Of a stretch of 64,000 nt of DNA, positions 16,794 through 53,267 are shown piece by piece (position 1 is the first letter of the stretch; each line of letters starts with the position of its first letter). The notes under the pieces were generated by a model, which saw nothing but the letters and a program-made list of their open reading frames with translations, searched no databases and had not been told where the DNA came from. Where the stretch lies: assembly GCF_058153355.1 (NCBI RefSeq), contig NZ_CM177019.1; one strand, written 5' to 3'. The position numbers and the translations under genes are program-made.

Positions 16794-18122
16794 TTATTCA
16801 ACCTTATCTGGAAGTCTTGGCTTCCGTTGAGCACGGATGAACTCAATTACGTCGCCAATTGTACCAGTTTCGCGGAGAGCAAGAAGTTGCGTCATTACAT
16901 TGTGCCAACTCACCTTATCTGAATGTCTACGCAACAGTGGTGTAATACCGCCAAGCGCATTAAACATCTCTCCATACTTACGAGCGGTAAAGGCATCACA
17001 GGCGGGTTCCAGTTTGTCTACAAAAAAGGCTATATGTTCATGTTCCTTTTTCGTGAAGGATTCATTGTATTTAAACGCTGCCACTATATTTGAATAGCCC
17101 TGCTGATTGGCTAAAAGTCGATGGGTCAACATGAGAATTTTGGTGTGATTGGGAGAAAAGTCCCAACCATCCTGCTCCAACGTTGTTTTAACTCGTTCCA
17201 GAGTAGCCTGGCCTTCACATAATGGTAAATCACCACTCCAGTGCACGCCTTTTTGACGAACTCCTTGCCAATTGTTTGTATGGAAAACGCGTACTAAACC
17301 TGTAGCTTCGGGATCTTTAACACACTGCGGTAGCTCAGGTCTCATACGATTAAGGGCATCAACAATTATCTTGTCCGAACGAAAATTGGCTTCTTTACCT
17401 ATTTCAACCACGTCCTGATGTTCCAGCTTTCCACATCCACCACCATAGATTTTTTGCCAATGGTCGCCGAAAAAACCAAATAAAGGTGCTCTAGCTTGTC
17501 CAAGAAAATGCCGTTTAATTGCCTCAATCCAGTTTTTATCAGTGTCCTGGTACTCATCGACCAGAATGATTGGAAAGCGTTCTGCAATCACTCTACGGAA
17601 TTTTTCGTGCTCCATGAGTGAGACAGTTAAAGAAAGAACATCGTCATGATGAAGAGTTATACGATGGTCGCGAATAGAGCGATGTCCAAGATTATACTCA
17701 ACACTACGATTCCCAAGGCTTCCACCAACTTCTTCGAGCTTTTCTGTCCATGTTGGCATTGTCTCAATCAGTTCTCTCAACGGTTTTTGAAAGCTGCTTA
17801 TTAACGACCAACAGAACGCATGATTGGTATCACAAAAAACGATGGGGCTTCGATCTGTTCGCGCGACGATTTCATCCTTCGCCACGTTAGTAAAGGTGAT
17901 GCAGGCAATTTGCTGGCTACGTTTTTCAAATAAATCCTTATTTCGCTCAATCAAGAATCGAAGTGCCTTAATAAGGGAATACGTTTTACCCGCACCAGCG
18001 CCAGCTTCCAGCCGGAAGCTTCGTCCTTCACTGAGGCAAGCATACATAGATTCCAAAGCTCGCTGGCTAGCAGCTTCGGCGGGCGAATGGATCTCAGACA
18101 TCAGCGCTGGCTCCTTCTTCAA
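16794..18122 (-). CDS. UvrD/PcrA-like SF1 helicase, N-terminal segment
   Basis: Walker A GAGAGKTY, motif II ILVDEYQDT, motif III-like FFGDHWQKIY; start overlaps the upstream OLD-family gene by 29 nt. Confidence 0.7.
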   Translation of the reverse strand: MKKEPALMSEIHSPAEAASQRALESMYACLSEGRSFRLEAGAGAGKTYSLIKALRFLIERNKDLFEKRSQQIACITFTNVAKDEIVARTDRSPIVFCDTNHAFCWSLISSFQKPLRELIETMPTWTEKLEEVGGSLGNRSVEYNLGHRSIRDHRITLHHDDVLSLTVSLMEHEKFRRVIAERFPIILVDEYQDTDKNWIEAIKRHFLGQARAPLFGFFGDHWQKIYGGGCGKLEHQDVVEIGKEANFRSDKIIVDALNRMRPELPQCVKDPEATGLVRVFHTNNWQGVRQKGVHWSGDLPLCEGQATLERVKTTLEQDGWDFSPNHTKILMLTHRLLANQQGYSNIVAAFKYNESFTKKEHEHIAFFVDKLEPACDAFTARKYGEMFNALGGITPLLRRHSDKVSWHNVMTQLLALRETGTIGDVIEFIRAQRKPRLPDKVE

Positions 18123-20303: not shown

Positions 20304-21824
20304 TCACTCGGTCAAAGAGGCCTCACGAACATCATCCGGTTGAGGTTGGCACTCTTTCCATCGTCGAATAAGCGTTGCTACACAGGGATTACCCGCCAGT
20401 TGATTCATTCTGACCCAGTCAACATCCACTAATCCAGCCAGAAGTTCAGGATTTAGTTCCCCTTGTAATGGGTGCCACTGGCGAATACTGGGCTGGCGCT
20501 GAATTTGAGGTTGAAGGGGAGCCAAACTCCCGACGATAACGTAATTTTGTTCTGGATCATGCCAGAGTCGTGTAATGCCAGGTATGTTTTTCAACCAGTT
20601 TCGAGGATCACCTAAAGGTAAATCAAAAACACGAGAGAGTAATTTATTCCATGACGCTATTAATGACGAACTGGCTTTCTTTGCCAATTTTTTCTCACCT
20701 GCCAGGAGTGCATTTTTTCTTTCTGGCCATTTGGAAAAAATATAACTTTTTAAAATATCGTAGGTAACATTAAGTTCATTATTGTAATAATACTCACGCA
20801 AAGCACAATTCCACAACTCGCACAGCAAGTCTAGTTCACGCATGAGTGTATTTTTATTGGTATCTGATAATTCACCTTCCTCATTAAGTTGCGCTATATA
20901 AAAAGACAGTATCTTTGTATCTGGTAAGAGCCAGTGGTTTAGTGAGAACTGCTGACTTTGAGTATCAAGAACAGTCATTAATGCATCTAAATTCTCAGGG
21001 ATCATATTAGGGGTGTCGTATTTCGGATCCTGAAGAAGAATGGATATTTCTTCCATTCTATGAATAATTATTGTCAATCTCTGAGCAAATCTGGTTAATT
21101 TATCTTCACTGCTGCCAAAACCTTGCGCTATTGATTCAGGCCGATAAGTATAAGGCCATTTTTTATTTAAGAGAGTAAGAAGAGCCTCGACAGAGGTATC
21201 AAACAGTTTCAGCCTTTCATCGCAGGCTTTAACTAAATCCGGGCAAGAAGGATTAAAAGGTAAAATTACTGGGCGGTCTTGTTCAGCGGTGAATAAATAT
21301 CCTTCGGTGATAACCAATAGGTCATGAGTCAGTAAGTCTTTCTGTTCTGTCAGGCTTGTACTGATTCTTGTTTCTTTGCAAAGTAAAAGATGCTTCAACG
21401 CAAGTTCTTTGTACGCAACTTCGGTATTACGCGCCAATGCATCAAGACAGGTCTTTTTCTCAAGATCTTGAATGGCATAGTCGTAATAGCAAGAATCTAT
21501 CGCAGGGATGAGTCGGGTAGTCCCATCGGGAGTATCCTGCTCAATCAATAAATTATCAACAACAGAATCACCACTAAGATCAAACGGATTAACGTTGATA
21601 TGCTGGCACGCAATTTTAGTTCTTAGATTCTGAGTTAACGGATAGCGGTCATCAATTATACCACGGATCTGATCTAACAAAACAAGTATGCATATAGAGC
21701 TGTCTTTTTCCAATTTTTCAAATGATGAGGGTTCTGAATCCGGTAATAATTCCAGCTGTACATCAGGATACTTTTTGTTCAACACCTTTTGTATCTGCGC
21801 ACTTCCCCGTGAAACCCGGGTCAT
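20304..21824 (-). CDS. hypothetical protein, no recognisable motif; 5' end lies in IS66-derived sequence
   Basis: Long ORF (track 20304-22004); only in-frame Met codons are inside the IS66 tnpC remnant, so the native N-terminus is probably lost. Confidence 0.4.
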
Positions 21825-22843
21825 CCAACCGGAAGAAGAATGCTGCCCGGCCTGTGGTGGCGGGCTCAGTCCTCTGGGATGTGATGTGTCAGAACAACTG
21901 GAGCTTATCAGCAGCGCCTTTAAGGTTATCGAAACACAACGTCCGAAACTGGCCTGTTGCCGGTGCGACCATATCGTGCAGGCTCCGGTGCCTTCAAAAC
22001 CCATTGCACGCAGTTATGCCGGAGCGGGGCTTCTGGCCCATGTTGTCGCTGGAAAATATGCAGACCATCTGCCGTTATACCGCCAGTCAGAAATATACCG
22101 TCGTCAGGGCGTGGAGCTGAGCCGTGCCACACTGGGGCGCTGGACAGGTGCTGTTGCTGAACTGCTGGAACCGCTGTATGACATCCTGCGCCAGTATGTG
22201 CTGATGCCCGGTAAAGTCCATGCCGATGATATCCCCGTTCCGGTCCAGGAGCCGGGCAGCGGTAAAACAAGGACTGCCCGGCTGTGGGTCTACGTTCGTG
22301 ATGACCGTAACGCCGGTTCGGAAATGCCTCCGGCGGTCTGGTTCGCGTACAGCCCGGACCGGAAAGGTATCCATCCACAGAATCATCTGGCCGGTTACAG
22401 CGGAGTGCTTCAGGCCGATGCTTACGGTGGTTACCGGGCGTTGTACGAATCCGGCAGAATAACGGAAGCCGCATGTATGGCTCATGCCCGGAGAAAAATC
22501 CACGATGTGCATGCAAGAGTGCCCACCGACATCACCACGGAAGCCCTGCAGCGTATCGGTGAACTGTATGCCATCGAGGCAGAGGTCCGGGGCTGTTCAG
22601 CAGAACAGCGTCTGGCGGCAAGAAAAGCCAGAGCCGCGCCACTGATGCAGTCACTGTATGACTGGATACAGCAACAGATGAAAACACTGTCGCGTCACTC
22701 GGACACGGCAAAAGCGTTCGCATACCTGCTGAAACAGTGGGATGCACTGAACGTGTACTGCAGTAATGGCTGGGTGGAAATCGACAACAACATCGCAGAG
22801 AACGCCTTACGGGGAGTGGCCGTAGGCCGGAAAAACTGGCTCT

Positions 22844-24667
22844 GTGTGTCACGAAGGAGTACTTATGGCAACAATGTGAAAATTGCAGCATAAGTTATCC
22901 ATGCTCTGAGGTGGGTGGAGGTGGGCCCTCCGGTCAGGGTTTACAGGAGCACTGACCAAACGACCCGGTGCTGCTTCATTCTAAGGAATGAGGTGGTGAG
23001 CGACTCGGGAAAAGGCAGAGATCTACTGTCACGTGGGGTTCGGGAAGCTGAACGAAAGTAAACTGTCCGATGAAGCATCGAAATCTTAGATGATGTCAAA
23101 ATGGGGCCGTACAGCCGTCCCCTGATAAGCGCAGAAGACACCTGCTTACTGACTGCGCGGCATCCGGTGTGAAGGCAGCAGGATCCCGGGCCAGACCATC
23201 TCAGGGAACGTGAGAACCTGTTTCCGGCACGTATCGGGAAACAGGGGCGGACCCATTCGTAGTAGTGATGAAAGATCTGTAATGGGTCTGGAGCGAAGGG
23301 ATGGGGATCACATTCATTGCAGAAGACACAACCCAAAAGGGGATGACGTAACTGATGCAACGAAAATCATTTGAAATACCAAAAGCACTGGTCTGGGCAT
23401 CATATCTGGATGTGCGTCGCAACAAGGGAGCCCCCGGATGCGACGGGCAGACTTTGAAAATGTTCGACCAGCAACGTGATGGCAATCTATACAAGATCTG
23501 GAACCGGCTATGTTCGGGAACATGGTTTCCGCCACCAGTGCTGGAAAAACGGATCCCGAAGTCGAATGGCAAGGAACGCATTCTGGGGATCCCAACAGTA
23601 TCCGATCGAATTGCTCAGGGAGCGATAAAACTTTTCATGGAAGAAAAGCTTGACCCGATTTTCCATGCTGATTCATATGGTTACCGACCAGGCAAATCAG
23701 CTCATGACGCTCTGAAACAATGTGCCATCCGGTGCTGGCGTTATAGCTGGATACTGGAAGTGGACATCAGTGCGTTTTTCGACCATGTGAGACATGATCT
23801 GGTGCTCAAAGCTCTGGAACACCACGGGATGCCTAAATGGGTCATCCTGTACTGTCGACGCTGGATGGAAGCGCCAATGCAGAGTTGTGAAAATGGAGAA
23901 TTAATAACCCGAACACGAGGCACTCCGCAGGGCGGGGTCATTAGTCCACTACTTGCTAACTTGTTCCTTCACTATGCATTTGATTTGTGGATGGAAAGAG
24001 AATATCGGGGGGTACCGTTTGAGAGGTACGCTGACGATATTGTAGTACATTGTTCACGAATGAGTGATGCAACAAGGCTGAAGAACAGGTTATCGGAGCG
24101 CTTCTCGGAAGTCGGGCTGGTCCTGAATGCAGGGAAAACGAATATCGCCTACATTGACACGTTTAAAAGGAGAAACGTCGCAACGAGTTTCACCTTTCTC
24201 GGATATGACTTCAAAGTGCGTACGCTGAAGAATTTCAAAGGCGAACTGTACCGAAAATGCATGCCGGGTGCGTCAAATGCAGCAATGCGCAAAATAACAG
24301 AAACAATCAAGAAGTGGCGTATACATCGCTCAACAGCTGAGAGTTTGCTGGATTTTGCGAGGCGCTACAATGCGATAGTGAGAGGCTGGATCGAGTACTA
24401 CGGAAAGTTCTGGTCCAGAAATTTCAACTATCGACTGTGGAGTGCAATGCAGTCACGTCTGCTCAAGTGGATGCAGTCTAAATACAGACTTTCGAACCGG
24501 AAGGCTCAGCGAAAGCTGACGCTGGTAAGGAAGGAGTATCCGAAGCTATTTGTTCACTGGTATTTACTACGTGCATCAAATGAGTGATCAAGAGCCGTAT
24601 GACGCGAGAGTGTCACGTACGGTTCCGTGAGCAGCCGGGGAGTGAAATTCTCTCCGGCTGACTCGAC
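22844..24667 (+). mobile_element. group II intron (~1.8 kb) with intron-encoded reverse transcriptase
   Basis: 5' GTGTG start; domain V-like GAGCCGTATGACGCGAGAGTGTCACGTACGGTTC near 3' end; joining the flanks restores the TnpC frame (KNWL-FAGSDSGG). Confidence 0.7.
23355..24587 (+). CDS. group II intron reverse transcriptase/maturase
   Basis: 410 aa with RT motifs including YADD and a C-terminal maturase-like region. Confidence 0.8.
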   Translation: MQRKSFEIPKALVWASYLDVRRNKGAPGCDGQTLKMFDQQRDGNLYKIWNRLCSGTWFPPPVLEKRIPKSNGKERILGIPTVSDRIAQGAIKLFMEEKLDPIFHADSYGYRPGKSAHDALKQCAIRCWRYSWILEVDISAFFDHVRHDLVLKALEHHGMPKWVILYCRRWMEAPMQSCENGELITRTRGTPQGGVISPLLANLFLHYAFDLWMEREYRGVPFERYADDIVVHCSRMSDATRLKNRLSERFSEVGLVLNAGKTNIAYIDTFKRRNVATSFTFLGYDFKVRTLKNFKGELYRKCMPGASNAAMRKITETIKKWRIHRSTAESLLDFARRYNAIVRGWIEYYGKFWSRNFNYRLWSAMQSRLLKWMQSKYRLSNRKAQRKLTLVRKEYPKLFVHWYLLRASNE

Positions 24668-24852: not shown

Positions 24853-26796
24853 TCAATACGGTTCTGGCGAGCCGCTTACGTTTAATCGGGAAATCTCATA
24901 TTTTCGGTTCATCATTAATGGCAGAAGGAAGCGTTGATGCTGTTGACGAGAAATTTCACCAGCACGGAGCAGTTTTTCTAGGTTGCGTAACTGGAAACCC
25001 GCATGCGCCATATCATCATTGTTCTCTGTATTGGCCTGAAAAGCGGAAAAGTAATAATGCCGTGATTCCAGCAAATATAAACAGGTCAGATCCATATTTT
25101 TGCCAGATTCAGGCAGGCTGAAATCCAGATTCACACCATTCGTCGCAGAGGCGGTCTGAGTCAGCACAATGACAATACGCCGGGAGGCAAATGCGGCCTG
25201 ATAAGCATCACTAAAGCCCTTTTTCTTCTGACATTCTGCGGTTAACAGACAAATCAGCGCAGGCTCATTATGTATGCTCACTGGGATAAACACATCAGCA
25301 AAATTTTTTAGTAGAGGATCATCAGATAAAGGTTGTTCCATTTTTAACCATGCGAGGTATTCTCTACTTTGTGTTGCTATTGTAGTGGTAAGCCATTTTC
25401 TTAAATAGGCTATGGAATTCACGAAAGCAAGATGCCCCCGGTGTTGAGGTCTTTTTCCCGCAAGATCCAATACATTAAGCAATTTTAGCAGTATATTTTT
25501 TCGATATTCTGATTCGAAATCTGATGAGGGGTCATCGCCATTCTGGAAAAAATCGGGGGCTAGCGAAGCGAGCAGATCAACACAATGCGGGTTATTCTTT
25601 ATGCTATTGAAATCTTGAATCTCAGCATTCAGTTGTGTGTTTCTGATATTTTCTTTGCTGTTATTGATCTCTTCAATAGCTAAATACTGCAACTGGAAAT
25701 CATCAGCCGTCTGGACATAAGGTATCGGTTCTTTAAACCACTCGACAGGTCGTTTTTCAAAAGTTGTTCCCAGAAAACTTTGTGTAACAGCAGGGTTGCG
25801 TGCTTCTGCAATATAACGAAGAGCTGAATTAATCCACCGGACATCGAAGTGATTACAGGCTCTTTCAATATATGACGTAGCCGACAGTGCAAAGACAAGA
25901 TTACGACTGGCGAGAGAAAGCAGCAGACCTTCTGCCGTCGTGGGCAGAAAGGCACGTTTGATCTGTATCCGTAACGGATCGATATCCGTATCTGAGACAT
26001 TCTGTTTCAGCAACCAATTGGTCAAGCCAAAAATACTGGCATGAGTATTTGGCAAAATATTACTTTTCCTTAATTCCCGTAGTTCCGGCAGGTCAGTACG
26101 CGGTAACAAAAATCGGGACATATTGGGCAGGGTTGAGCCGTAGTATGAAGGCCTGTAATCATTAACGGGGTCGAACAGAAGTCGGGTTAACTTTTTAATG
26201 TATTCATACGCTTCATCTTCACTTGCAGTCAGGTCGGTCAACATTAGGCTAAACTGTCGAATGAATTTTTCCATCAAGCGTAAAAAATCACTGATGTCGA
26301 TAGTCTGATCGCTATCCTGAAGCGGAGAGTCTGGCCTGATAATTTCGTATCCATGTTCCGCTTTCCGCATAATAAGCCGTTCACTGGTCACCAGTTGATC
26401 GGAACGGAATAAATAATGCTCACCAAAGGGTTTATTATCCAGATATTGCTGAAGAGGAATAACCAGCGATCTGGCATGTGTTAAATCAGCATGTTTTTCT
26501 GTTAATGCACTATCCAGATCATTAATAAATTTTTCTAGACGTTCACGGATCATAGGTGCAGGTTCCATTTCAACATACTGCATACGTTGTAGTAATCTGC
26601 GTCCCCCGTCGAGCAACTGACCCAGACACTCAGGTGGTTCCTGAACCCATTGCGCCTGTGCCAGATACTCTTGTAATACCTCAGACTGGTAATCAAATTC
26701 ATCGATGAAAATGATGTAATTACGCAGCTCTTTGCTGGACATTTTTACTTTGCGACGCCCATCGTAAAACGATGAAACCATCTTTTGAGTCGTCAT
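24853..26796 (-). CDS. hypothetical large protein, downstream part of a split P-loop NTPase; Walker-B-like IIFIDEFD near N-terminus
   Basis: 647-aa ORF; stop codon lies inside the IS66 terminal repeat; starts 2 nt after the stop of 26799-27572 in another frame. Confidence 0.45.
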   Translation of the reverse strand: MTTQKMVSSFYDGRRKVKMSSKELRNYIIFIDEFDYQSEVLQEYLAQAQWVQEPPECLGQLLDGGRRLLQRMQYVEMEPAPMIRERLEKFINDLDSALTEKHADLTHARSLVIPLQQYLDNKPFGEHYLFRSDQLVTSERLIMRKAEHGYEIIRPDSPLQDSDQTIDISDFLRLMEKFIRQFSLMLTDLTASEDEAYEYIKKLTRLLFDPVNDYRPSYYGSTLPNMSRFLLPRTDLPELRELRKSNILPNTHASIFGLTNWLLKQNVSDTDIDPLRIQIKRAFLPTTAEGLLLSLASRNLVFALSATSYIERACNHFDVRWINSALRYIAEARNPAVTQSFLGTTFEKRPVEWFKEPIPYVQTADDFQLQYLAIEEINNSKENIRNTQLNAEIQDFNSIKNNPHCVDLLASLAPDFFQNGDDPSSDFESEYRKNILLKLLNVLDLAGKRPQHRGHLAFVNSIAYLRKWLTTTIATQSREYLAWLKMEQPLSDDPLLKNFADVFIPVSIHNEPALICLLTAECQKKKGFSDAYQAAFASRRIVIVLTQTASATNGVNLDFSLPESGKNMDLTCLYLLESRHYYFSAFQANTENNDDMAHAGFQLRNLEKLLRAGEISRQQHQRFLLPLMMNRKYEISRLNVSGSPEPY

Positions 26797-26798
26797 GA

Positions 26799-27572
26799 TC
26801 AGCAGGTGTTGCTTTTCGTCACGCCAGGCAATGGCGGGCAGAATGCGCCTGACCCAGACGTGGCGACGGAAATCTGCAACTCGTTGCCTGGCTTGGCTGC
26901 CTGCGTGAGTTCATGTTCTTCGCCATATTTTTCTTTTTGTTTCTTGGCTTCTTTTTCCAGCAATTTGATATTCTGAATCAGAGTTATCTCCACCGCTGCG
27001 CATGATTTGATTAATGACTCTTTCTCACTGGCGATGGCCGTCTGAAAACGCGTCGGATATCCTTTCAGCGATTTGTTAATATGCAGTATGTTTTTGCAAT
27101 TTCTACGCAATTTGTCGGCGATATCCTGAATGGCAAACAAATTTCTGTCTTCCAGGATATTGATGGAGTCAAATGGATCGGGAAGTGAGTCTGCGGAAAT
27201 ATTATTCTCATGAGGCAAGGGGGTGGCCTCGATGGCAGAAACGATCTGTTCATCTTGTGCATAGAGCACGCTGACGGTGAATGGTTCCCCGTTACTGTCT
27301 TTATGCGCTGCCGTTTTCTCATAAATGTCGTGCAAAATATTCCAGCGATGGGTAACCAGAATGGCTTGAGAGCCTGATTTTTTTATCGTCTCCAGCGCCG
27401 GGAGAGCGTTATCGGCATAGCCAGAGCGGTAGAGTGAGCTGGTTTTTCCGCTACCCGTAGGCCCCTGAAGCTGACAAAATCCTGCGATACGACGGGATGT
27501 TTTGGATTTTTTTGCCTGAGAAAGGGTGTATTCAATAACGGCATTGTAGGAACGTATTAAAGGGGCACTCAC
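26799..27572 (-). CDS. P-loop NTPase N-terminal segment (Walker A GPTGSGKTS)
   Basis: 257-aa ORF with Walker A near residue 40; low-complexity C-terminal tail suggests a frameshift into the next ORF. Confidence 0.45.
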   Translation of the reverse strand: MSAPLIRSYNAVIEYTLSQAKKSKTSRRIAGFCQLQGPTGSGKTSSLYRSGYADNALPALETIKKSGSQAILVTHRWNILHDIYEKTAAHKDSNGEPFTVSVLYAQDEQIVSAIEATPLPHENNISADSLPDPFDSINILEDRNLFAIQDIADKLRRNCKNILHINKSLKGYPTRFQTAIASEKESLIKSCAAVEITLIQNIKLLEKEAKKQKEKYGEEHELTQAAKPGNELQISVATSGSGAFCPPLPGVTKSNTC

Positions 27573-30535: not shown

Positions 30536-31423
30536 ATGGGGATACTGGAGCAGGAAATGACGCGACTGGCGCAGCAGGCGGGTGGCAGCTACAAAACTGT
30601 GGATGACCGCATCAGGCTGGCGCAGCGGTTTTGTGAGCGTCTGGTTCTGGCGCAGAACGTACAAATCCGCCGGGTGGAGCAGCTTAAGGCGCGGCATATT
30701 GAAGGCTATGTTCGTGAACGGCTGGCGCAGGGCATCACAAAGCGTTCCCTGCAAAATGAGATGGCGGCGGTGCGCTGCATTCTGAAACAGGCCGGGCGTG
30801 ACAGGCTGGCGCAGAGTGAGCGGCTGAATAACCGCTCGCTGGGATTGTCCGGAGCATCCCGTAACGGGACGAAGCTGGCTATTACACTGGAGCACTATCG
30901 TGATGTGCTGGAGACCGCCCGCGTAAAAGATCCGGGGCTGGCGGCAGCGCTGGAGCTCTCAAGGTTGATGGGATTACGTTCGCAGGAGGCGGTGCAGAGT
31001 GTACAGTCGCTGAAAACGTGGATACAGGCGCTGGAGCGTGGTGAGTCCCGGTTAACCGTGGTGTTCGGCACCAAAGGCGGACGGCCCCGCGAGACGATTA
31101 TTCTTGATGCTGGCGTAGTTAAAAAAGCGCTGGATAATGCGCTGGTGGTGGCTGAGGATCGTCACGGCAGGCTGATAGATAAGCCCGATCTGAGAAGCGC
31201 GATGAAATACTGGCACAGCCAGGCGTCGGGTCTTGGTTTAACTGGCGCATATTCCCCGCACTCGTTGCGCTATGCCTGGGCGCAGGATGCTATTCGTCAT
31301 TATCTGGCGCAGGGATTTTGTGAGAAGGAAGCGCTGGCGATGACGGCGATGGATTTGGGTCACGGCGACGGGCGCGGGCGGTATGTGGCGCAGGTTTACG
31401 GGCGAAAGGGGGATGCTGATTGA
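30536..31423 (+). CDS. small tyrosine recombinase/integrase-family protein
   Basis: 295 aa; C-terminal HSLRYAWAQ box and candidate nucleophile in GRGRYVAQVYG; LAQ-rich N-terminal domain. Confidence 0.5.
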   Translation: MGILEQEMTRLAQQAGGSYKTVDDRIRLAQRFCERLVLAQNVQIRRVEQLKARHIEGYVRERLAQGITKRSLQNEMAAVRCILKQAGRDRLAQSERLNNRSLGLSGASRNGTKLAITLEHYRDVLETARVKDPGLAAALELSRLMGLRSQEAVQSVQSLKTWIQALERGESRLTVVFGTKGGRPRETIILDAGVVKKALDNALVVAEDRHGRLIDKPDLRSAMKYWHSQASGLGLTGAYSPHSLRYAWAQDAIRHYLAQGFCEKEALAMTAMDLGHGDGRGRYVAQVYGRKGDAD

Positions 31424-32116: not shown

Positions 32117-33379
32117 TCAGGCCGCCTTATGCCGTCGCGCATAAATATACGGCGCAACGTATCCCTCGCGGCTCACGTCCAGATAATCCGACCACCACTG
32201 CATCATGGCTGTACGGGCGTCAAGATGTTCAGCCCGGTGGATATACGCCGCCCGAACGCTGTTGCGCTCCTGATGACTTATCTGCCGCTCCACCGCATCC
32301 CGTGACCAGAGCTCAGATTCCACTAATGCGCTACAGGCCATTGCCCGGAAGCCATGCCCGCAAACGTCAGTTTTAGTATCGTAACCTATCAGACGCAGCG
32401 CCCGGTTGATGGTGTTTTCACTCATCGGTTTATACGGGTTATGGTCGCCGGGGAACACCAGTTCCAGATGGCCGGAAATTTCGTGTATCTGCTTCAGAAT
32501 GGCAATAGCCTGTCGGGAAAGTGGCACAATATGTGGGGTGCGCATTTTCGCGCCGCGACCAGAGAAACGGACTTTCTCAATCGCTTCCCTTGTGGCGGGG
32601 ATGATCCAGATTTTGTTTCTGAAATCTATCTCACCCCAGCGGGCAAAGCGCAGCTCGCTGGAACGGATAAACAGGTGGAGAGTCAACACCACCGCCAGCC
32701 TCGTAAGCTGTCGTCCCTGCCGATAGTCGCCAATGCGCTCAAACAATTCGGGCAACCGCTCCAGCGGCAGAGCGGGATAGTGATTCTTAACCGGCGGCGC
32801 GGTGACGCCTTCCAGATGCTGCGCCGGGTTGTTTTCGGTCAGTCCCTGCTGAACGGCGTAACGCATGATGTTGCAGAGTTGCTGCCGGGTACGGGACGCG
32901 ACTTCCAGAAAACCTTTATCCTCAATAACCCGCAGTAACGCAGTGAAATGCTGCGTTTTCAGCGTGGTAACGGGCAGATGGCCAATAGCCGGAAATATAT
33001 GGTTATTCATGCTGGCGAGAATGCGCTCTGCATAATCAGGCGACCACTTTTTGTTGGTTTTGTGCCATGCAAGCGCTACAGCTTTAAAACACTTTTCCGG
33101 TGAAGTGGCGGCTTTTTCATCCATGCGTTGTTGGGCGGGGTTGATATTCTGCGCCAGTAGCTTGCGGATAGCATCGCGCTGTTGCCGGGCTTCAGCGAGA
33201 GAAATCAGCGGATATGCGCCCAGACTGACGCGGGACTCTTTACCACCGAAGCGATACTTGAGATACCAGATACGTGAACCGCCGGGATTGACCAGCAAAT
33301 ACAGACCGTGTGAATCAGACAGTTTGACGGGTTTGGAAGAGGGTTTTAAGTTACGGATTTTTGAATCGTTTAAAGACAT
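32117..33379 (-). CDS. int: P4-type tyrosine integrase
   Basis: ORF 32117-33481; start placed at MSLNDSKIRNLKPSSKPVKLSDSHGLYLLVNPGGSRIWYLKY, a P4-integrase-like N-terminus; adjacent to tRNA-Asn. Confidence 0.8.
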   Translation of the reverse strand: MSLNDSKIRNLKPSSKPVKLSDSHGLYLLVNPGGSRIWYLKYRFGGKESRVSLGAYPLISLAEARQQRDAIRKLLAQNINPAQQRMDEKAATSPEKCFKAVALAWHKTNKKWSPDYAERILASMNNHIFPAIGHLPVTTLKTQHFTALLRVIEDKGFLEVASRTRQQLCNIMRYAVQQGLTENNPAQHLEGVTAPPVKNHYPALPLERLPELFERIGDYRQGRQLTRLAVVLTLHLFIRSSELRFARWGEIDFRNKIWIIPATREAIEKVRFSGRGAKMRTPHIVPLSRQAIAILKQIHEISGHLELVFPGDHNPYKPMSENTINRALRLIGYDTKTDVCGHGFRAMACSALVESELWSRDAVERQISHQERNSVRAAYIHRAEHLDARTAMMQWWSDYLDVSREGYVAPYIYARRHKAA

Positions 33380-33540
33380 TTGGGGGTCACTCCAGAATCG
33401 AACCAACCTGACCCCAAATCTGACCACCAAATTAACCGGATGCGGAGGGAAAACTGAATACGCATCTGGAAAGATTTTCACGCTAACTTATTGAATCAAT
33501 ATCAAATAAAGACTAATAAGGTAGCGTAAGAATCGAAATT

Positions 33541-33616
33541 TGGCTCCTCTGACTGGACTCGAACCAGTGACATACGGATTAACAGTCCGCCGTTCTACCG
33601 ACTGAACTACAGAGGA
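33541..33616 (-). tRNA. asnT: tRNA-Asn (GUU), island integration target
   Basis: Exact reverse complement of the 76-nt tRNA-Asn at 1688-1763; symbol by synteny with yeeJ and mtfA. Confidence 0.9.
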
Positions 33617-34607: not shown

Positions 34608-34697
34608 GGAGAGATGCCGGAGCGGCTGAACGGACCGGTCTCGAAAACCGGAGTGGGGGCAACTCCACCGGGGGTTCAAATCCCCCTCTCTCCGCCA
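34608..34697 (+). tRNA. serU: tRNA-Ser (CGA)
   Basis: 90-nt GGAGAGATGCCGGAGCGGCTGAACGGACCGGTCTCGAAAACCGG...TCTCCGCCA with long variable arm and CGA anticodon. Confidence 0.85.
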
Positions 34698-34749: not shown

Positions 34750-35775
34750 TTACTTGGAATATTTTCTTGGAATATTTTCAGGTAACGGGACATCAAGTGT
34801 CGGTGAAACTTTAACCTTCCTGTCATAGATTAGCACTTGCCCCTCGGTTTTGTGACCAGAGAAAAGTTGCTTATCCCGACTGCTTCCTTCATAGTCTGAA
34901 ATTCCTTTCGCCTTCAGATCATGAAAGGTGAAGTCGGTTAAAATACCTGAAATTTTGCCTGCGCGATTTCTTGCTTCTACCCACATTTCGTTAAAGCCTT
35001 TGTACATATATCGGTTGCCGTATTGATTGCTGATTACATAGGCGGATGTTGGTAACTGTTTTGCTTTTTCGATCGCCGCCTGTAATCGTGGACTCCATGC
35101 TTTTATCTGTTTTTTCCCTGTTTTCCCTTGCTGGATAAAGATCCCGTCGTTTCCAATCTGCTCCCATTTCAGCGATAACACATCGGAAACCCTCGCTGCA
35201 CACAGATAGGCAATTTCCATTGCGATAAAAACAGGAAGAGGTGCAACGCTTAATACTGCCTGGTATTCTTTGTCGGTTACATATCGTTCCCGGTTTTTGG
35301 CCTTGAATTTACTTACACCTGCACATGGGTTAGCCTTCACGTACCCTCGCTCATACCCCCAACTGTAAACGCGGGACATACTGCTTTTTTCATGGTTGGC
35401 TTGCGTTTTACTCTGTTCCCCTCTCTTGTCCATGTATCGACGGATGTGTTCTGGTTTTATGGAATCTGCCGGCACCTTACCGAATACGGCAAGCAACTTT
35501 TTTTGATGTTGCAGATAATCTTTTTGTGTTCTTGGACTGAGGTCACTGTAATAGGCGCTGGCGAGGAATTTTTCCCACAAGCGACCGAATGTCATTGCAC
35601 GATCGCGATTATTTACAGTTTCCTCATACTTTTTCCATAAAGCAGCTAAACCATCCTTGATGGCGGTTAGTGTTACAGATTCTCTGGATGTTGGTTTCCA
35701 TACATAACTATATTTATTTGGGTATACATTTGGAGGTAATTTTTCGTGTTCAGGATTTTTCCTTCGTCTTCCCAT
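34750..35775 (-). CDS. int: phage tyrosine integrase
   Basis: 341-aa ORF abutting the tRNA-Ser 3' end with an excisionase immediately upstream. Confidence 0.75.
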   Translation of the reverse strand: MGRRRKNPEHEKLPPNVYPNKYSYVWKPTSRESVTLTAIKDGLAALWKKYEETVNNRDRAMTFGRLWEKFLASAYYSDLSPRTQKDYLQHQKKLLAVFGKVPADSIKPEHIRRYMDKRGEQSKTQANHEKSSMSRVYSWGYERGYVKANPCAGVSKFKAKNRERYVTDKEYQAVLSVAPLPVFIAMEIAYLCAARVSDVLSLKWEQIGNDGIFIQQGKTGKKQIKAWSPRLQAAIEKAKQLPTSAYVISNQYGNRYMYKGFNEMWVEARNRAGKISGILTDFTFHDLKAKGISDYEGSSRDKQLFSGHKTEGQVLIYDRKVKVSPTLDVPLPENIPRKYSK

Positions 35776-47750: not shown

Positions 47751-48806
47751 GTGCGGGTATTACTTAGACCTGTTCTGGTACCGGAACTCGGGCTGGTGGT
47801 TCTTAAGCCTGGTCGTGAATCCATGCAGGTATTTCATAACCCTCGCGTGCTGGTGGAGCCGGAACCGAAAAGCATGCGTGGTCTGCCGTCCGGAGTCGTG
47901 CCTGCCGTTCGCCAGCCGCTGGCGGAGGACAAATCATTACTGCCATTTTTCAGCGATGAGCGTGTGATTCGTGCTGCAGGTGGTGCTGGTGCACTGTCTG
48001 ACTGGCTGTTGCGTCATGTCAAATCCTGCCAGTGGCCTCATGGTGACTATCATCACAGTGAAACCGTCATACATCGTTACGGTACCGGCGCGATGGTGTT
48101 GTGCTGGCACTGCGACAACCAGCTGCGTGACCAGACCTCCGAATCACTCGGGCAACTTGCTCATCAAAACCTGTCAGCATGGATGATTGACGTCATACGC
48201 CATGCAATGAATGGCACACAGGAGCGGGAATTATCGCTGGCTGAATTATCCTGGTGGGCGGTCTGCAATCAGGTGGCGGATGCGCTACCAGAGGCAGCAT
48301 TACGTCGTTCTCTGGGGTTACGTGCGGAAAAAATCCGCTCGGTGTACCGCGAAAGCGACATCATACCGGGAGAACAGACAGCCACCAGCATCCTGAAACA
48401 GCGCACAAAAAATCTTGCGCCGCTGCCTCACGCCCACCAGCAAAACCCGCCACAGGAAAAGACGGTGGTCAGCATTGCCGTTGATCCGGAGTCACCGGCT
48501 CAGTATCTCCAGCGCCAGAAACCACAACGGGAAGAGATGCCCGTATACACGCGCTGGGTAAAAACGCAGAAATGCATGACGTGTGGCAATCAGGCAGATG
48601 ATCCGCATCACATCATTGGTCATGGACTGGGAGGGATGGGAACAAAGGCTGATGATTTGTTTGTTATTCCGCTGTGCCGTAAATGCCATAGCGAACTACA
48701 CGCCGGGGTAAAAGATTTTGAAGAAAAACACGGCAGCCAGCTGTTGTTGCTGATTCGTTTTTTAATGCACGCGAGAAATTCGGGTGTTCTGAAGTGGAAA
48801 GCATAA
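47751..48806 (+). CDS. phage protein with Cys/His-rich C-terminal motif
   Basis: C-terminal CMTCGNQADDPHHIIGH...CRKCHSELH; start uncertain. Confidence 0.4.
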   Translation: MRVLLRPVLVPELGLVVLKPGRESMQVFHNPRVLVEPEPKSMRGLPSGVVPAVRQPLAEDKSLLPFFSDERVIRAAGGAGALSDWLLRHVKSCQWPHGDYHHSETVIHRYGTGAMVLCWHCDNQLRDQTSESLGQLAHQNLSAWMIDVIRHAMNGTQERELSLAELSWWAVCNQVADALPEAALRRSLGLRAEKIRSVYRESDIIPGEQTATSILKQRTKNLAPLPHAHQQNPPQEKTVVSIAVDPESPAQYLQRQKPQREEMPVYTRWVKTQKCMTCGNQADDPHHIIGHGLGGMGTKADDLFVIPLCRKCHSELHAGVKDFEEKHGSQLLLLIRFLMHARNSGVLKWKA

Positions 48807-49187
48807 ATGACTGAACGTACAGAATTCGTTTTGCCTTACCCGCCGACGGTGAACACTTACTGGCGGCGTCGTGGTGGAACGTACTTTATATCGGAAACGG
48901 GAAAGCGTTATCGCCGGGATGTGGCGCTTATTGTCCGTCAGCAGCGACTGAAATTAAGCCTGTCCGGAAGACTGGCGATAAAGATTATTGCAGAGCCACC
49001 GGATAAGCGCCGTCGTGACCTGGACAATATCCTGAAGGCACCACTGGATGCGCTGACGCATGCCGGACTACTTATAGACGACGAGCAGTTTGATGAAATC
49101 AATATTGTGCGCGGTCAGGTCGTTCCTGGTGGGCGACTGGGCGTGAAGATTTACGAAATAATGCATGACGGGCAGGTCAAAAAATGA
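48807..49187 (+). CDS. rusA: RusA-family Holliday junction resolvase
   Basis: 126 aa with RusA-like core (PDKRRRDLDNILKAPLDALTHAG). Confidence 0.75.
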   Translation: MTERTEFVLPYPPTVNTYWRRRGGTYFISETGKRYRRDVALIVRQQRLKLSLSGRLAIKIIAEPPDKRRRDLDNILKAPLDALTHAGLLIDDEQFDEINIVRGQVVPGGRLGVKIYEIMHDGQVKK

Positions 49188-50005
49188 AGCTGGAAGATTT
49201 ACCGAAATACTATTCCCCAAAATCGCCAGGCCTGACTGATGCATCCGCCTCGACGTCAAAAGATGCGCTGAGTATCACTGATGTGATGGCTGCGCAGGGT
49301 ATGACACAAAACCTGGCTGAGATGGGATTTTCTGCGTTCCTGGGGAAAATGGGCATCAGTATGAATGACAGGGCGCGGGCAACAGAATTACTGGCAGATT
49401 ATGCACTCAGTCGGTGCGATCGCGTGGCGGCGTTAAGAAAACTTCCGGCAGAAATAAAACCGACAGTGATGCGCATTATGGCTTCGTACGCTTTTGAGGA
49501 TTATGCCCGCAGCGCAGCGAGTAAAAAGCAATGCCCTTGTTGCCGGGGGGAAAAATTTATTGAAAGCGAGGTTTTTACAAACAAGGTTCAGTATCCGGAT
49601 GGCAAGCCGCCAGTATGGGCAAAGTGTACGAAAGGTGTGTATCCGTCTTACTGGGAAGAATGGAAAAAAGTCCGGGAGGTGGTGAAGGTTTCCTGTCCTG
49701 AATGCAAAGGGAAGGGGGAGATTTCCACTGCCTGTAAAGACTGTCGTGGGCGTGGTGTCGCCATTCATCGTGAAGAGTCGGAAAAACGGGGCATGCCTGT
49801 TATCAGGGACTGCCAGCGTTGTGGCGGTCGGGGCTATGAAAGGCTGCCATCAACGGAGGCATTTAATGCCATATGCAAAGTGACGAGTGCTATTACACTT
49901 GATACGTGGAAAAAATCAGTGAAGCGCTTTTACGATACGTTGGTGGTTCGGTTTGACATTGAAGAGGCATGGGCGGAGCGGCAGTTAAAGAGGGTAATGC
50001 GATAG
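49184..50005 (+). CDS. late-gene antiterminator Q-like protein
   Basis: 273 aa with several CxxC zinc-finger pairs; lies between rusA and the lysis cassette. Confidence 0.55.
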   Translation: MKLEDLPKYYSPKSPGLTDASASTSKDALSITDVMAAQGMTQNLAEMGFSAFLGKMGISMNDRARATELLADYALSRCDRVAALRKLPAEIKPTVMRIMASYAFEDYARSAASKKQCPCCRGEKFIESEVFTNKVQYPDGKPPVWAKCTKGVYPSYWEEWKKVREVVKVSCPECKGKGEISTACKDCRGRGVAIHREESEKRGMPVIRDCQRCGGRGYERLPSTEAFNAICKVTSAITLDTWKKSVKRFYDTLVVRFDIEEAWAERQLKRVMR

Positions 50006-50007
50006 TG

Positions 50008-50108
50008 TTGTTGATTTTTCCCGAATTTGTGGTAAATTCGCCATAAAGATGGGCGTTTTGTGCCTGACGTTAGAGAAATTTTTACAGCCCGCCATCGAGC
50101 GGGTTTTT
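50008..50108 (+). promoter_or_regulatory. candidate late promoter and Q-dependent terminator (PR-prime and tR-prime equivalent)
   Basis: TTGATT...TAAATT promoter-like hexamers just after the Q stop, then hairpin CCCGCCATCGAGCGGG-TTTTTTG. Confidence 0.45.
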
Positions 50109-50232
50109 TGTGCCAGAAAAACGGTACAGAACATTAAACGCGCTGGTGGTTGCGAATACTGGTCTTTCAGCTTGCTGGCTGTTTCGACAAGAGTTATTGG
50201 TATGTCACGTTAACCGGAAAAGGGAAAAAGGC

Positions 50233-50430
50233 ATGCTAAAACAGCAGGATATGACCGAAACCGCCAGAGTGGTGTTTAATGAATTAAGCGTCACCGAACC
50301 GGCGACCGTCGGGGAAATTGCGCAGAACATTTATCTTTCACGCGAACGCTGCCAGTTAATACTGACCCAGCTTGTTATGGCGGGTCTGGCAGATTATCAG
50401 TTCGGTTGTTACAGACGCCTTCCGCAGTGA
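50233..50430 (+). CDS. hypothetical small phage protein
   Basis: Start at internal Met of ORF 50110-50430; weak ribosome-binding site. Confidence 0.25.
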   Translation: MLKQQDMTETARVVFNELSVTEPATVGEIAQNIYLSRERCQLILTQLVMAGLADYQFGCYRRLPQ

Positions 50431-50580
50431 AGGCTTTTTTATTTGTGGTAATGGGCGGCTGGTGGGTGTTAGCGGCACCTGCCAGCCATCTGCTCATGCG
50501 TTGGGATCACAAGCAAACCTCAGGCCCATCTGCTTTGCGCAAAAGCAGAATGAGCCTATCAGAGAAGTGCTTATTGATCT

Positions 50581-51633
50581 ATGACTAATACTGTAAAAAT
50601 ATCCAGTTGTGAGTTAATCAACGCTGATTGCCTGGAATTTATCCAGACCTTACCGGAAAACTCTGTCGATCTGATAGTCACAGACCCGCCATACTTTAAA
50701 GTGAAGCCCGAGGGCTGGGATAACCAGTGGAAGGGCGACGAGGATTACCTGAAATGGCTGGATCAGTGTCTGGCGCAATTCTGGCGGGTACTGAAGCCTG
50801 CCGGAAGTCTCTACCTGTTCTGTGGTCATCGCCTGGCATCTGATATCGAAATCATGATGCGTGAGCACTTTAATGTGCTGAACCACATTATCTGGGCGAA
50901 GCCGTCCGGACGCTGGAACGGATGCAGCAAGGAAAGCCTGCGGGCGTATTTCCCGGCAACAGAACGCATTCTGTTTGCAGAACATTATCAGGGGCCATAC
51001 CAGCCCAAAAATGACGGCTATGCGGCAAAGGGGCGCGAACTAAAACAGCACGTCATGGCCCCGCTGATTTCTTACTTTCGTGATGCGCGTGAATCACTGG
51101 GAATAACGTCAAAACAGATAGCGGAAGCCACCGGAAAGAAAAACATGGCTTCGCACTGGTTTGGTACCAGTCAGTGGCAATTACCGAACGAGGTTGATTA
51201 CAACAAATTGCAGGCGTTGTTTGCGCGTGTTGCGGCAGAAAAACATCAGCGCGGGGAACTGGAAAAGCCACACCACCAGCTGGTGGCATCTTATGATTCA
51301 CTTAATCGCAAATATTCTGAATTGCTGGATGAGTTTAAATCTCTCCGGCGCTATTTCTCCGTATCAGTATCCGTGCCTTATACCGATGTCTGGATGCATA
51401 AGCCCGTTCAGTTCTACCCGGGTAAACATCCGTGCGAGAAACCGGCGGATATGCTCAGGCAAATAATCAATGCCAGTAGTCGACCTGGTGATCTGGTTGC
51501 TGATTTTTTTATGGGATCCGGTTCCACAATAAAAGCAGCAATGGCGCTGGGGCGTCGGGCCTTAGGTGTTGAGCTTGAGTCAGAGCGGTTTAACCAGACA
51601 GTGAAAGAGATAAACGAGCTGGTGGGGAAATAA
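50581..51633 (+). CDS. DNA methyltransferase (likely N6-adenine; DPPY motif IV before FxGSG motif I)
   Basis: VTDPPYF near N-terminus and FFMGSGST near C-terminus; no adjacent restriction enzyme. Confidence 0.7.
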
Positions 51634-51700
51634 TCTGGTGGCCACGTCAGGTGGCCTTTTTATTTCCATTACACAGCACCCGCATCTGCGAGGTGGGGTT

Positions 51701-51916
51701 ATGAAATCCATGGATAAGTTAACAACGGGTGTCGCCTATGGCACCTCAGCAGGTAGTGCTGGCTACTGGTTTTTACAGTGGCTTGATCAGGTCAGTCCGT
51801 CACAGTGGGCTGCGATTGGTGTACTGGGGAGTCTGGTTCTGGGCTTTCTGACTTATCTGACGAATCTGTATTTCAAAATAAGAGAAGACAAGCGTAAGGC
51901 TGCGAGAGGTGAATAA
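51701..51916 (+). CDS. phage-21-type class II holin (pinholin) with dual start MKSMDK
   Basis: [53 protein letters not shown] closely resembles S21. Confidence 0.8.
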
Positions 51917-52413
51917 TGTCGCCATCATTACGCAAGGCTGTTGCAGTTGCTATTGGTGGTGGGGCTATTGCCATAGCGTCTGTGCTCATCACTGGCCCAG
52001 GTGGTAACGATGGTCTGGAAGGTGTCAGCTACATACCATACAAAGATATCGTTGGCGTATGGACTGTATGCCACGGACACACCGGAAAAGACATCATGCT
52101 CGGTAAAACGTATACCGAAGCAGAATGCAAAGCCCTCCTGAATAAAGACCTTGCCACTGTCGCCAGACAAATTAACCCGTACATCAAAGTCGATATACCG
52201 GAAACAACGCGCGGCGCTCTTTACTCGTTCGTTTACAACGTGGGCGCTGGCAATTTCAGAACATCGACGCTTCTTCGCAAAATAAACCAGGGCGATATCA
52301 AAGGCGCATGTGACCAGCTACGTCGCTGGACATATGCTGGCGGTAAGCAATGGAAAGGGCTGATGACCCGTCGTGAGATTGAGCGTGAAGTCTGTTTGTG
52401 GGGGCAGCAATGA
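51916..52413 (+). CDS. SAR endolysin (lysozyme with N-terminal signal-anchor-release domain)
   Basis: N-terminal Gly/Ala-rich TM segment [23 protein letters not shown] followed by a lysozyme-like domain. Confidence 0.75.
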
Positions 52414-52874
52414 GCAGAGTCACCGCGATTATCTCCGCTCTGGTTATCTGCATCATCGTCTGCCTGTCATGGGCTGTTAATCATTACCGTGATAACGCCA
52501 TTACCTACAAAGAGCAGCGCGACAAAAACGCAAGAGAACTGAAGCTGGCGAACGCAACCATTACTGACATGCAGCAGAGACAGCGTGATGTTAATGCACT
52601 CGATGCTAAATACACGAAGGAGTTAGCTGATGCGAAAGCTGAAAATGAAACTCTGCGCGCTGATGTTGCCGCTGGTCGTCGTCGGTTGCACATCAAAGCA
52701 GTCTGTCAGTCAGTGCGTGAAGCCACCACCGCCTCCGGCGTGGATAATGCAACCAGCCCCCGACTGGCAGACACCGCTGAACGGGATTATTTCACCCTCA
52801 GAGAGCGGCTGATGACGATGCAGATGCAACTGGAAGGGGCACAGGAGTATATCCGCACTCAGTGCATTAAGTAG
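52398..52874 (+). CDS. i-spanin (Rz)
   Basis: N-terminal TM segment then coiled-coil; follows the endolysin. Confidence 0.7.
52630..52812 (+). CDS. o-spanin (Rz1) embedded in Rz in another frame
   Basis: Lipobox LVVVGC and proline-rich PPPPPAW; entirely inside the Rz gene. Confidence 0.7.
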
Positions 52875-52916: not shown

Positions 52917-53267
52917 ATGCCATCACTAATCCCACGTGCCTGCCGTAAGCGAGGCTGCGCAGGCACAACAACAGACAGCTCTGGCTACTGTGATAAACAT
53001 CGCGGTGAAGGCTGGGTGCAGCACCAGCGCGGACTGAGCTGCCACCAGCGTGGCTATGGCTCAAAATGGACGGTGATTCGTGCCCGTATTCTGAAGCGCG
53101 ATAAAGGTCTGTGTCAGTTGTGTCTGCGTGTCGGTGTGGTGAGCGAGGCGAAAACCGTCGACCACATCATCCCGAAAGCGCATGGCGGAACAGACGCAGA
53201 CAGCAACCTGCAGAGTCTGTGCTGGCCCTGCCATAAAGCGAAAACAGCGCGCGAACGAATCAGGTGA
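52917..53267 (+). CDS. HNH endonuclease
   Basis: Cys-rich 116-aa protein with HNH-like DHIIPKAHGGTD...CWPCH, upstream of terminase genes. Confidence 0.65.
   Translation: MPSLIPRACRKRGCAGTTTDSSGYCDKHRGEGWVQHQRGLSCHQRGYGSKWTVIRARILKRDKGLCQLCLRVGVVSEAKTVDHIIPKAHGGTDADSNLQSLCWPCHKAKTARERIR

Follow-up and report, generated by a model that had tools for sequence, protein, structure and literature searches.

The 64,000-nucleotide (nt) stretch analysed here, hereafter the window, belongs to contig NZ_CM177019.1 of the NCBI RefSeq assembly GCF_058153355.1. The late region of the prophage that it contains carries at 50581–51633 a gene for a β-class DNA amino-methyltransferase, which on sequence grounds is assigned to the M.EcoGII family, together with a conserved untranslated leader and a small upstream open reading frame (ORF) encoding a winged-helix protein. 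These elements lie between a candidate late promoter and the lysis genes, interspersed with terminator-like hairpins, as follows.

50011–50053, plus strand: candidate late promoter pR', read by eye just after the stop codon of the antiterminator gene Q
50086–50112, plus strand: tR'-like intrinsic terminator, AGCCCGC...GCGGGTT then TTTTTG, found by scan, kept in relatives and annotated in phages SfV and Ayreon
50233–50430, plus strand: 65-amino-acid stand-alone winged-helix protein (phrog_331, E = 1e-46)
50417–50444, plus strand: second terminator-like hairpin, GCCTTC...GAAGGC then TTTTTTATTT, at the end of the small ORF, whose stop codon it overlaps; an equivalent is annotated in Ayreon
50447–50580, plus strand: conserved 134-nt untranslated leader, abutting the methyltransferase ATG
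50581–51633, plus strand: M.EcoGII-family β-class methyltransferase with predicted N6-adenine specificity, 350 amino acids plus stop, ATG start
51640–51665, plus strand: third terminator-like hairpin, GGCCAC...GTGGCC then TTTTTATTT, in the methyltransferase–holin gap; annotated in SfV and Ayreon

A first-pass annotation made from the letters alone had described 50581–51633 as a DPPY-type DNA methyltransferase, and this description is borne out by the exact ORF, its profile matches, its motif order and its predicted fold. The protein matches Pfam PF01555 (N6_N4_Mtase) over residues 29–341 with E = 1.9e-43 and 149.5 bits, against a cut-off of 26.7, three PHROGs families of 'DNA methyltransferase' (E 1e-99 to 1e-107) and the PADLOC model MTase_II (E = 4e-153), all of them well outside what chance would give. 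Profile searches, in which a match to a methyltransferase acting on something other than DNA would have told against the annotation, returned no such match. Motif IV (TDPPYF, residues 34–39, with DPPY at 35–38) precedes the target recognition domain, which is followed by the FxGxG motif I (DFFMGSGST, residues 308–316, with FFMGSG at 309–314), the layout of β-class enzymes. The protein is not of the Dam-type α class, as PF02086 gave no match, PF01555 being the only one, and the order of the motifs is IV to I rather than I to IV. An AlphaFold model built with 48 homologues (predicted local distance difference test score, pLDDT, averaging 92.7) comprises a Rossmann domain (approximately residues 1–135 and 260–350) interrupted by a helical insertion that corresponds to the target recognition domain (approximately residues 146–255). 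The top Protein Data Bank (PDB) matches of this model in Foldseek, CcrM (6pbd), M.BceJIV (8urk), MboIIA (1g60) and RsrI (1nw6), with E values of 1e-15 to 1e-17, are all β-class DNA amino-methyltransferases, N4-cytosine enzymes ranking next, and a sequence search of the PDB returned the same set of enzymes. N6-adenine enzymes typically have DPPY and N4-cytosine enzymes SPPY/F; the DPPY motif and the 84% identity to M.EcoGII predict that the target is the N6 of adenine. The gene is intact. All of the invariant residues of the family (D35, W46, D47, W59, E128, W271, K287, D308 and G312) are present, and the coding sequence is under purifying selection, since amino-acid identity between genera (77–82%) is far above the identity at four-fold degenerate sites (38–44%).

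M.EcoGII, a 349-residue enzyme from a prophage of E. coli O104:H4, produces N6-methyladenine (m6A) as detected by liquid chromatography–mass spectrometry, is not expressed in the lysogen and is harmful if constitutive (PMC5778455). The window protein is approximately 84% identical to it over the full length (some 55 amino-acid differences), identity falling from 94% in the N-terminal catalytic region to 81% in the target recognition region (residues 160–237, in which 15 of the 78 residues differ) and 75% in the C-terminal region. Identity is approximately 90% to Anc291 and 71% to SUPREM, two reconstructed ancestors that, when expressed, methylate both DNA and RNA in a largely non-sequence-specific manner (PMC11551740). 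These values are good to 1–2%, as the sequences of M.EcoGII, Anc291 and SUPREM were machine-read from the supplementary PDF of PMC11551740, a text that contains a few reading errors (such as NHHIW for NHIIW). As identity between M.EcoGII and SUPREM is itself only 70%, the window protein falls inside the range of sequences already tested as non-specific, the characterized members of the family methylating adenine in any sequence context (PMC5778455; PMC11551740). Like M.EcoGII (GenBank EGT69837.1) and its near-twin M.EcoGI of E. coli O104:H4 C227-11, the window enzyme belongs to the 349–350-residue length class, has the β layout and is prophage-borne without a partner endonuclease. The two-domain structure of Anc291 and SUPREM (Rossmann fold plus helical bundle) agrees with the model of the window protein, although both are laboratory reconstructions rather than natural genes. 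Residue 179 is a glutamine, as in the M.EcoGII clade, whereas SUPREM has Glu179, which raises activity on RNA. The family is very large in E. coli prophages, and an enzyme of phage 1720a-02 was described as 'very similar' to M.EcoGII (PMC5778455). This phage enzyme shares 93% identity with M.EcoGII and 84% with the window protein, and lies in the same context as in the window, comprising Q, small ORF, leader and methyltransferase.

Within the regions scanned the methyltransferase is an orphan, as the first-pass annotation had proposed. Its immediate neighbours are the winged-helix ORF and a holin gene, an arrangement that does not match a Type II restriction–modification pair, and no restriction endonuclease came to light when the flanking genes and ten early prophage ORFs were scanned with Pfam and PADLOC. 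Similarly, no restriction–modification genes were found among the ten larger ORFs of the genomic island at asnT (see below), the scans of the late region extending as far as 55.6 kb. The orphan label can, moreover, be made more precise, the gene being no anonymous methylase but, by its identity to M.EcoGII and Anc291, a member of a named family. The M.EcoGIX/M.BceJIII enzymes resemble the window enzyme in being orphan and mobile-element-borne, in their very relaxed specificity and in their silence during normal growth, and are thought to protect the DNA of their element on entering a new host (PMC7736820). In contrast, they are specific for single-stranded DNA (ssDNA), recognize SAY, associate with DNA polymerase I, are plasmid-borne and belong to another sequence family (PMC7736820).

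The methyltransferase moves as a module with the 65-residue winged-helix ORF and the leader. The start of the small ORF was placed at ATG 50233, as in annotated orthologues, the mechanical ORF list beginning instead at GTG 50110. An AlphaFold model of the protein (pLDDT 92) displays an H-H-H-β-hairpin topology with a TM-score of approximately 0.8 to the winged helices of MarR/OhrR proteins. The same arrangement of small ORF and methyltransferase is evident in loci from Klebsiella, Salmonella, Pantoea, Cronobacter and Enterobacter, and, where the flank was long enough to judge (84 loci), the end of the small ORF lies 153–160 nt ahead of the methyltransferase in 83 cases and 114 nt ahead of it in the remaining one. 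The 65-residue protein may act as a regulator of the methyltransferase or as a reader of methylated DNA.

The organization of the module invites an analogy with com-mom of phage Mu, in which mom is preceded by a small ORF (com) and an RNA leader, Com being a zinc-finger protein. Mom is a toxic DNA-modification enzyme that is silent in the lysogen and made late, as the window enzyme is predicted to be, and it has been paired with M.EcoGII in an EcoSal review (PMC12707154). There is, however, no homology between the two; Mom is not a methyltransferase dependent on S-adenosylmethionine (SAM), and the upstream protein in the window is a winged helix rather than a zinc finger. Control of the methyltransferase in the manner of com-mom is an analogy only, which may or may not hold here. 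An obligatory, Com-like dependence on the 65-residue protein is weakened by five loci (two from Kosakonia, two from Trabulsiella and locus L119) that keep the leader in the absence of the small ORF. In an Erwinia homologue both the leader and the small ORF are absent.

The leader is real and under selection. Relative to the window copy its identity across genera is 75–82%, far more than the 38–44% at four-fold degenerate sites of the adjacent coding sequence, and this difference indicates strong purifying selection in at least 12 genera. A covariance model of the leader has a single match in the window (50450–50586, 140 bits), while across E. coli the element occurs at 4388 places in 2707 genomes, approximately as frequently as the methyltransferase. 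A pattern scan of one genome per species located the leader in 22 contigs from around ten genera; the methyltransferase came next in 18 of these and a truncated remnant in one, while three contained too little downstream DNA. Overall, wherever the flank could be read, the leader was accompanied by the methyltransferase or a remnant of it, in around a dozen genera. The single remnant is exemplified by Enterobacter sp. Bisph1 (L097, 2717–3277), where the leader adjoins icd and is followed by only a fragment of the methyltransferase in what is a decayed prophage. One further locus (L121, Logan SRR8137545) was left out as an assembly artefact; it resembles the E. coli module but has T at nearly every C, as if it derived from bisulfite-converted reads. 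RefSeq contains no annotation at the equivalent positions and no Rfam family matches the leader (50447–50580); indeed, across 49900–51800, which includes the region of the predicted pR'–tR' transcript described below, Rfam gave nothing at E ≤ 1.

The leader folds more stably than shuffled sequence (z = −4.9). The predicted fold, on the plus strand, contains a long hairpin at approximately 50456–50486, a second hairpin at approximately 50530–50548 and a long-range stem in which a GAUCA box (approximately 50504–50508) pairs with UGAUC just ahead of the AUG. In the consensus fold this pairing between UGAUC and the GAUCA/GGUCA box is kept in 26–27 of the 27 sequences. In the main hairpin, substitutions among G.U, G-C and A-U leave the pairing intact, and a diverged relative displays a few double changes. 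Covariation is weak, with compensatory changes in four of the 32 pairs, reflecting the near-invariance of the leader sequence. Occlusion of the start site (−8 to +3) did not exceed that in shuffled-leader controls, a fraction of 0.07–0.47 of which reached the observed pairing probability. Two other identities for the element were considered and rejected. It is not a small coding gene, as the ORF that begins at the conserved ATG 50451 (MGGWWVL...) varies from 7 to 45 codons and shifts frame between lineages, and it does not correspond to the anti-sRNAs of Tree et al. 2014, which lie downstream of moron genes and are 51–60 nt long.

Our tentative proposal, to which we give somewhat less than even chances, is that the leader is an undescribed cis-regulatory element dedicated to genes of the M.EcoGII family, controlling their transcription or translation either as RNA or as a DNA operator. 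Its trigger may be the winged-helix protein, the methyltransferase or a metabolite, for example SAM or S-adenosylhomocysteine (SAH), and the element would serve as a second safeguard in addition to antitermination by Q. The leader and its small winged-helix partner are the sole parts of the locus for which no prior description was found.

Transcription of the module would begin at the candidate pR', which consists of TTGATT (50011–50016), a 16-nt spacer, an extended −10 element (TGgTAAATT, 50030–50038) and, after a further 6 nt, AAAGATGGG (50045–50053). In pR' of phage lambda the −10 element is TAAATT and the spacing to AACGATGGG is 6 nt; we take AAAGATGGG to be the counterpart of this σ70-dependent pause element, which it resembles. 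The −10 element and the ...GATGGGC block are kept downstream of Q in SfV, mEp460 and prophages of Pantoea and Cronobacter. A consensus scan detected no σ70-like promoter in 49800–52000, while the terminator scan identified eight terminator-like sites on both strands compared with 2.5 expected from shuffled sequence. The segment from pR' to tR' (50011–50112) is predicted to yield a short constitutive transcript of approximately 65 nt. In its position alone, this transcript is like the regulatory small RNA StxS made by Stx phages (PMC7547250).

From its location downstream of pR' and of two terminator-like hairpins, we infer that the methyltransferase is expressed only through Q-modified polymerase during lytic growth. 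This timing agrees with the published silence of homologues in lysogens: homologues of M.EcoGI/GII listed as 'nonspecific' (~93% similarity) gave no methylation signal in lysogen methylomes (PMC6602927), and no transcript was detected by reverse transcription polymerase chain reaction (RT-PCR; PMC4659465).

Taken together, we consider it probable that the gene encodes a non-specific adenine methyltransferase whose late, Q-dependent expression protects progeny DNA from restriction; the expectation that this particular enzyme has little or no sequence specificity belongs to the same joint judgement. Under this explanation the methyltransferase is the second ORF of a late operon transcribed from pR' just after Q. 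Polymerase would have to pass the tR'-like terminator and the second hairpin, which Q would enable by rendering it terminator-resistant, such that its synthesis, following induction or infection, would coincide with expression of the lysis and morphogenesis genes. Replicating phage DNA would then be heavily adenine-methylated before packaging, and progeny would arrive in new hosts already resistant to the many restriction systems of Types I, II and III that have adenine in their sites, while silence in the lysogen would avoid the toxicity of genome-wide adenine methylation. What the analysis itself establishes is the family, the intact catalytic motifs, the fold, the gene position, the terminators, the absence of a partner endonuclease from the regions scanned and the distribution of homologues. 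Non-specificity, lysogen silence and toxicity are probable properties of the window enzyme carried over from the literature on homologues rather than from work on this allele, while the Q-dependent timing in the window prophage and the anti-restriction benefit are what we infer. Of the two roles suggested in the first-pass annotation, protection of phage DNA is favoured by the published work and by the position of the gene behind terminators, whereas a change in host methylation in the lysogen is unlikely given the silence of homologues.

Several points weigh against this explanation. The candidate pR' matches the consensus at only eight of 12 positions, too few to pass the cut-off of the consensus scan, and was identified visually. 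The searchable literature yielded no experiment, for any carrier phage, on hypermethylation of virion DNA or on a gain in plating on restricting hosts, and the anti-restriction role is itself a deduction of authors and reviewers. Heavy m6A could also prove disadvantageous where the host carries m6A-dependent Type IV enzymes. Furthermore, with 16% divergence from M.EcoGII and changes in the target recognition region, the enzyme may have acquired some sequence preference. The differences in the target recognition region also count in favour of a rival reading, a sequence-specific orphan that, in the manner of CcrM, YhdJ or Dam, marks a defined motif and thereby regulates phage or host expression, replication or packaging. 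Partial NCBIfam matches to the YhdJ-type (PRK11524) and CcrM models point in the same direction, as does the RefSeq label 'site-specific DNA-methyltransferase' attached to many homologues. The NCBIfam scores are, however, far under the cut-offs (110 versus 292 bits and 74 versus 830 bits) and cover the catalytic motifs only, while the RefSeq label is a generic product name. The tested full-length relatives M.EcoGII, Anc291 and SUPREM, spanning 70–84% identity, are all non-specific (PMC11551740), as are, according to their listing in methylome studies, the homologues of ~93% similarity (PMC6602927). We therefore regard sequence-specific regulation as unlikely.

A role in lysogenic conversion, in which the enzyme is active in the lysogen and alters the methylome and expression of the host, would have precedent in other prophage methyltransferases such as M.EcoGIII, which reshape host expression (PMC6602927; PMC4659465). 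The TGTGGTAAT sequence upstream of the leader, read by eye, loosely resembles an extended −10 element. Nevertheless, the gene lies behind two terminator-like hairpins with no promoter-like site between Q and the holin in the scan, M.EcoGI/GII and close homologues display neither methylation nor RT-PCR signal in lysogens (PMC5778455; PMC6602927; PMC4659465), and constitutive expression is deleterious (PMC5778455), which together make lysogenic activity very improbable. The substrate in vivo might instead be RNA or ssDNA, for example transcripts or replication intermediates during lytic growth, since M.EcoGII methylates ssDNA, DNA:RNA hybrids and RNA in vitro (PMC5778455; PMC7544214). The initial velocity of M.EcoGII on RNA is, however, approximately 100-fold below that on DNA (0.12 versus 11.12; Table S3, PMC11551740), and Gln179 in the window protein is the residue associated with low RNA activity, in contrast to the glutamate of the RNA-improved variant, so there is only a slim chance that duplex DNA is not the principal target. 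Finally, truncated copies exist, both in Enterobacter beside icd and as fragmentary clusters in the search of representative sequences, and the window gene could in principle be an inactive remnant in a decaying prophage. Decay is contradicted by the full length of the gene with every invariant residue in place, by the conservation of the coding sequence between genera and by the integrase, replication, Q, lysis and terminase genes, all of which are full-length ORFs with strong family matches; the probability of an inactive remnant is close to negligible.

The methyltransferase alone matters little, being one more allele of a very common and characterized family, one member of which, M.EcoGII, is sold as a reagent (New England Biolabs M0603; cited in PMC7736820). 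The anatomy of the locus, with a pR' that carries a pause element, two hairpins before the gene and a third after it, would explain lysogen silence in sequence terms. The late, anti-restriction explanation also predicts heavily adenine-methylated virion DNA, a property that the searchable literature takes for granted without demonstrating it. Should the leader turn out to be a regulator, it would provide a simple and widespread model of how mobile elements control a dangerous enzyme, and would be relevant to anyone expressing M.EcoGII-type enzymes as tools.

The family is already known and is found in about half of E. coli genomes; the window copy is an ordinary one. Among 5426 complete E. coli genomes, 2609 carry the gene at nucleotide identities of at least 80%, the copy number per genome reaching seven. 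Homologues are present in 50 phage records, which include phiP27 (L24), SfV (orf48), mEp460 (mEp460_053), cdtI, Ayreon and many Stx2 phages; the 'putative DNA methylase' genes of lambdoid phages are 83–87% identical to the window gene at the nucleotide level. A protein search returned 2790 clusters at E ≤ 1e-20, from Escherichia, Citrobacter, Salmonella, Klebsiella, Enterobacter, Cronobacter, Pantoea, Mixta, Erwinia and Kosakonia, and 314 clusters at E ≤ 1e-30 when representatives of 50%-identity clusters were searched. The slot is conserved. Among the 86 loci fetched, a Q-family gene was detected upstream in 73, and 80 have a holin or stx gene on the downstream side, although the types of Q and holin vary. 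In the relatives from lambdoid phages the gene likewise follows Q and precedes a holin or stx, with the same small ORF ahead of it and terminators around it, while the surrounding Q, holin and cargo genes differ; in Stx phages, tRNA genes and stx are inserted between the methyltransferase and the lysis genes. Other cargo is accommodated on both sides, in the gap that separates Q from the module and downstream of the methyltransferase. A Salmonella prophage (L088, 1363–2001) contains a HicA/HicB toxin–antitoxin pair between Q and the small ORF, and in a Klebsiella locus (L087, 4643–6080) an AcrVA2-like gene beside a Cas1-like gene lies downstream of the methyltransferase.

The methyltransferase locus is part of a lambdoid prophage in an Escherichia chromosome, which begins at approximately 34.6 kb and continues past the end of the window. 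This assignment rests on the first 6 kb of the window (yeeO, amn, shiA and tRNA-Asn), which is up to 98.5% identical to E. coli chromosomes, on the integrase gene that follows a tRNA-Ser, and on early genes with lambdoid-type matches (Rha/Ash, a helix-turn-helix repressor, DnaT- and P-like replication proteins, DUF977 and DUF551). The first-pass annotation had placed the methyltransferase in a late-region moron slot between Q and the lysis cassette, and profile matches confirm the identity of the genes on either side. The prophage genes in question are listed below.

34608–34697: tRNA-Ser, ahead of the integrase
34750–35775: integrase, after tRNA-Ser
47751–48806: DUF968 gene, upstream of RusA, with no PADLOC match
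48807–49187: RusA, between DUF968 and Q
49184–50005, plus strand: antiterminator Q, 273 amino acids with a DnaJ-type zinc-finger region (Pfam PF03589 Antiterm, E = 4e-50; phrog_127 'anti-termination protein Q-like', E = 2e-111)
51701–52874, plus strand: lysis cassette (holin, lysozyme, Rz and Rz1)
51701–51916, plus strand: phage-21-type holin (Pfam PF04971, E = 3e-35)
51916–52413, plus strand: lysozyme (endolysin; Pfam PF00959, E = 1e-45)
52398–52874, plus strand: Rz (Pfam PF03245, E = 3e-52)
52630–52812, plus strand: Rz1, embedded, from the ORF list
52917–53267, plus strand: small HNH endonuclease, immediately upstream of the small terminase subunit

In PADLOC the HNH protein downstream of the lysis genes matches only generic HNH models, and these weakly (E 3e-5 to 2e-4). 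As its gene adjoins those for the small and then the large terminase subunits, this suggests a packaging-associated role rather than that of a restriction enzyme.

Upstream of the prophage, the asnT island spans approximately 16.8–33.5 kb. Its ORFs at 20304–22004, 24853–26796 and 26799–27572 have no Pfam match. Two integrase genes are present, at 30536–31423 on the plus strand and at 32117–33481 on the minus strand, the latter adjoining tRNA-Asn (33541–33616). The island also carries, on the plus strand, an IS66-family transposase (21688–22893) and a group II intron reverse transcriptase/maturase (23355–24587). On the minus strand, 16794–20166 of this island beside tRNA-Asn holds a Gabija-like defence pair, comprising a GajA-like ORF of 690 amino acids with AAA_15 and OLD-like TOPRIM domains (18094–20166) and a GajB-like ORF of 442 amino acids encoding a UvrD-type helicase (16794–18122).

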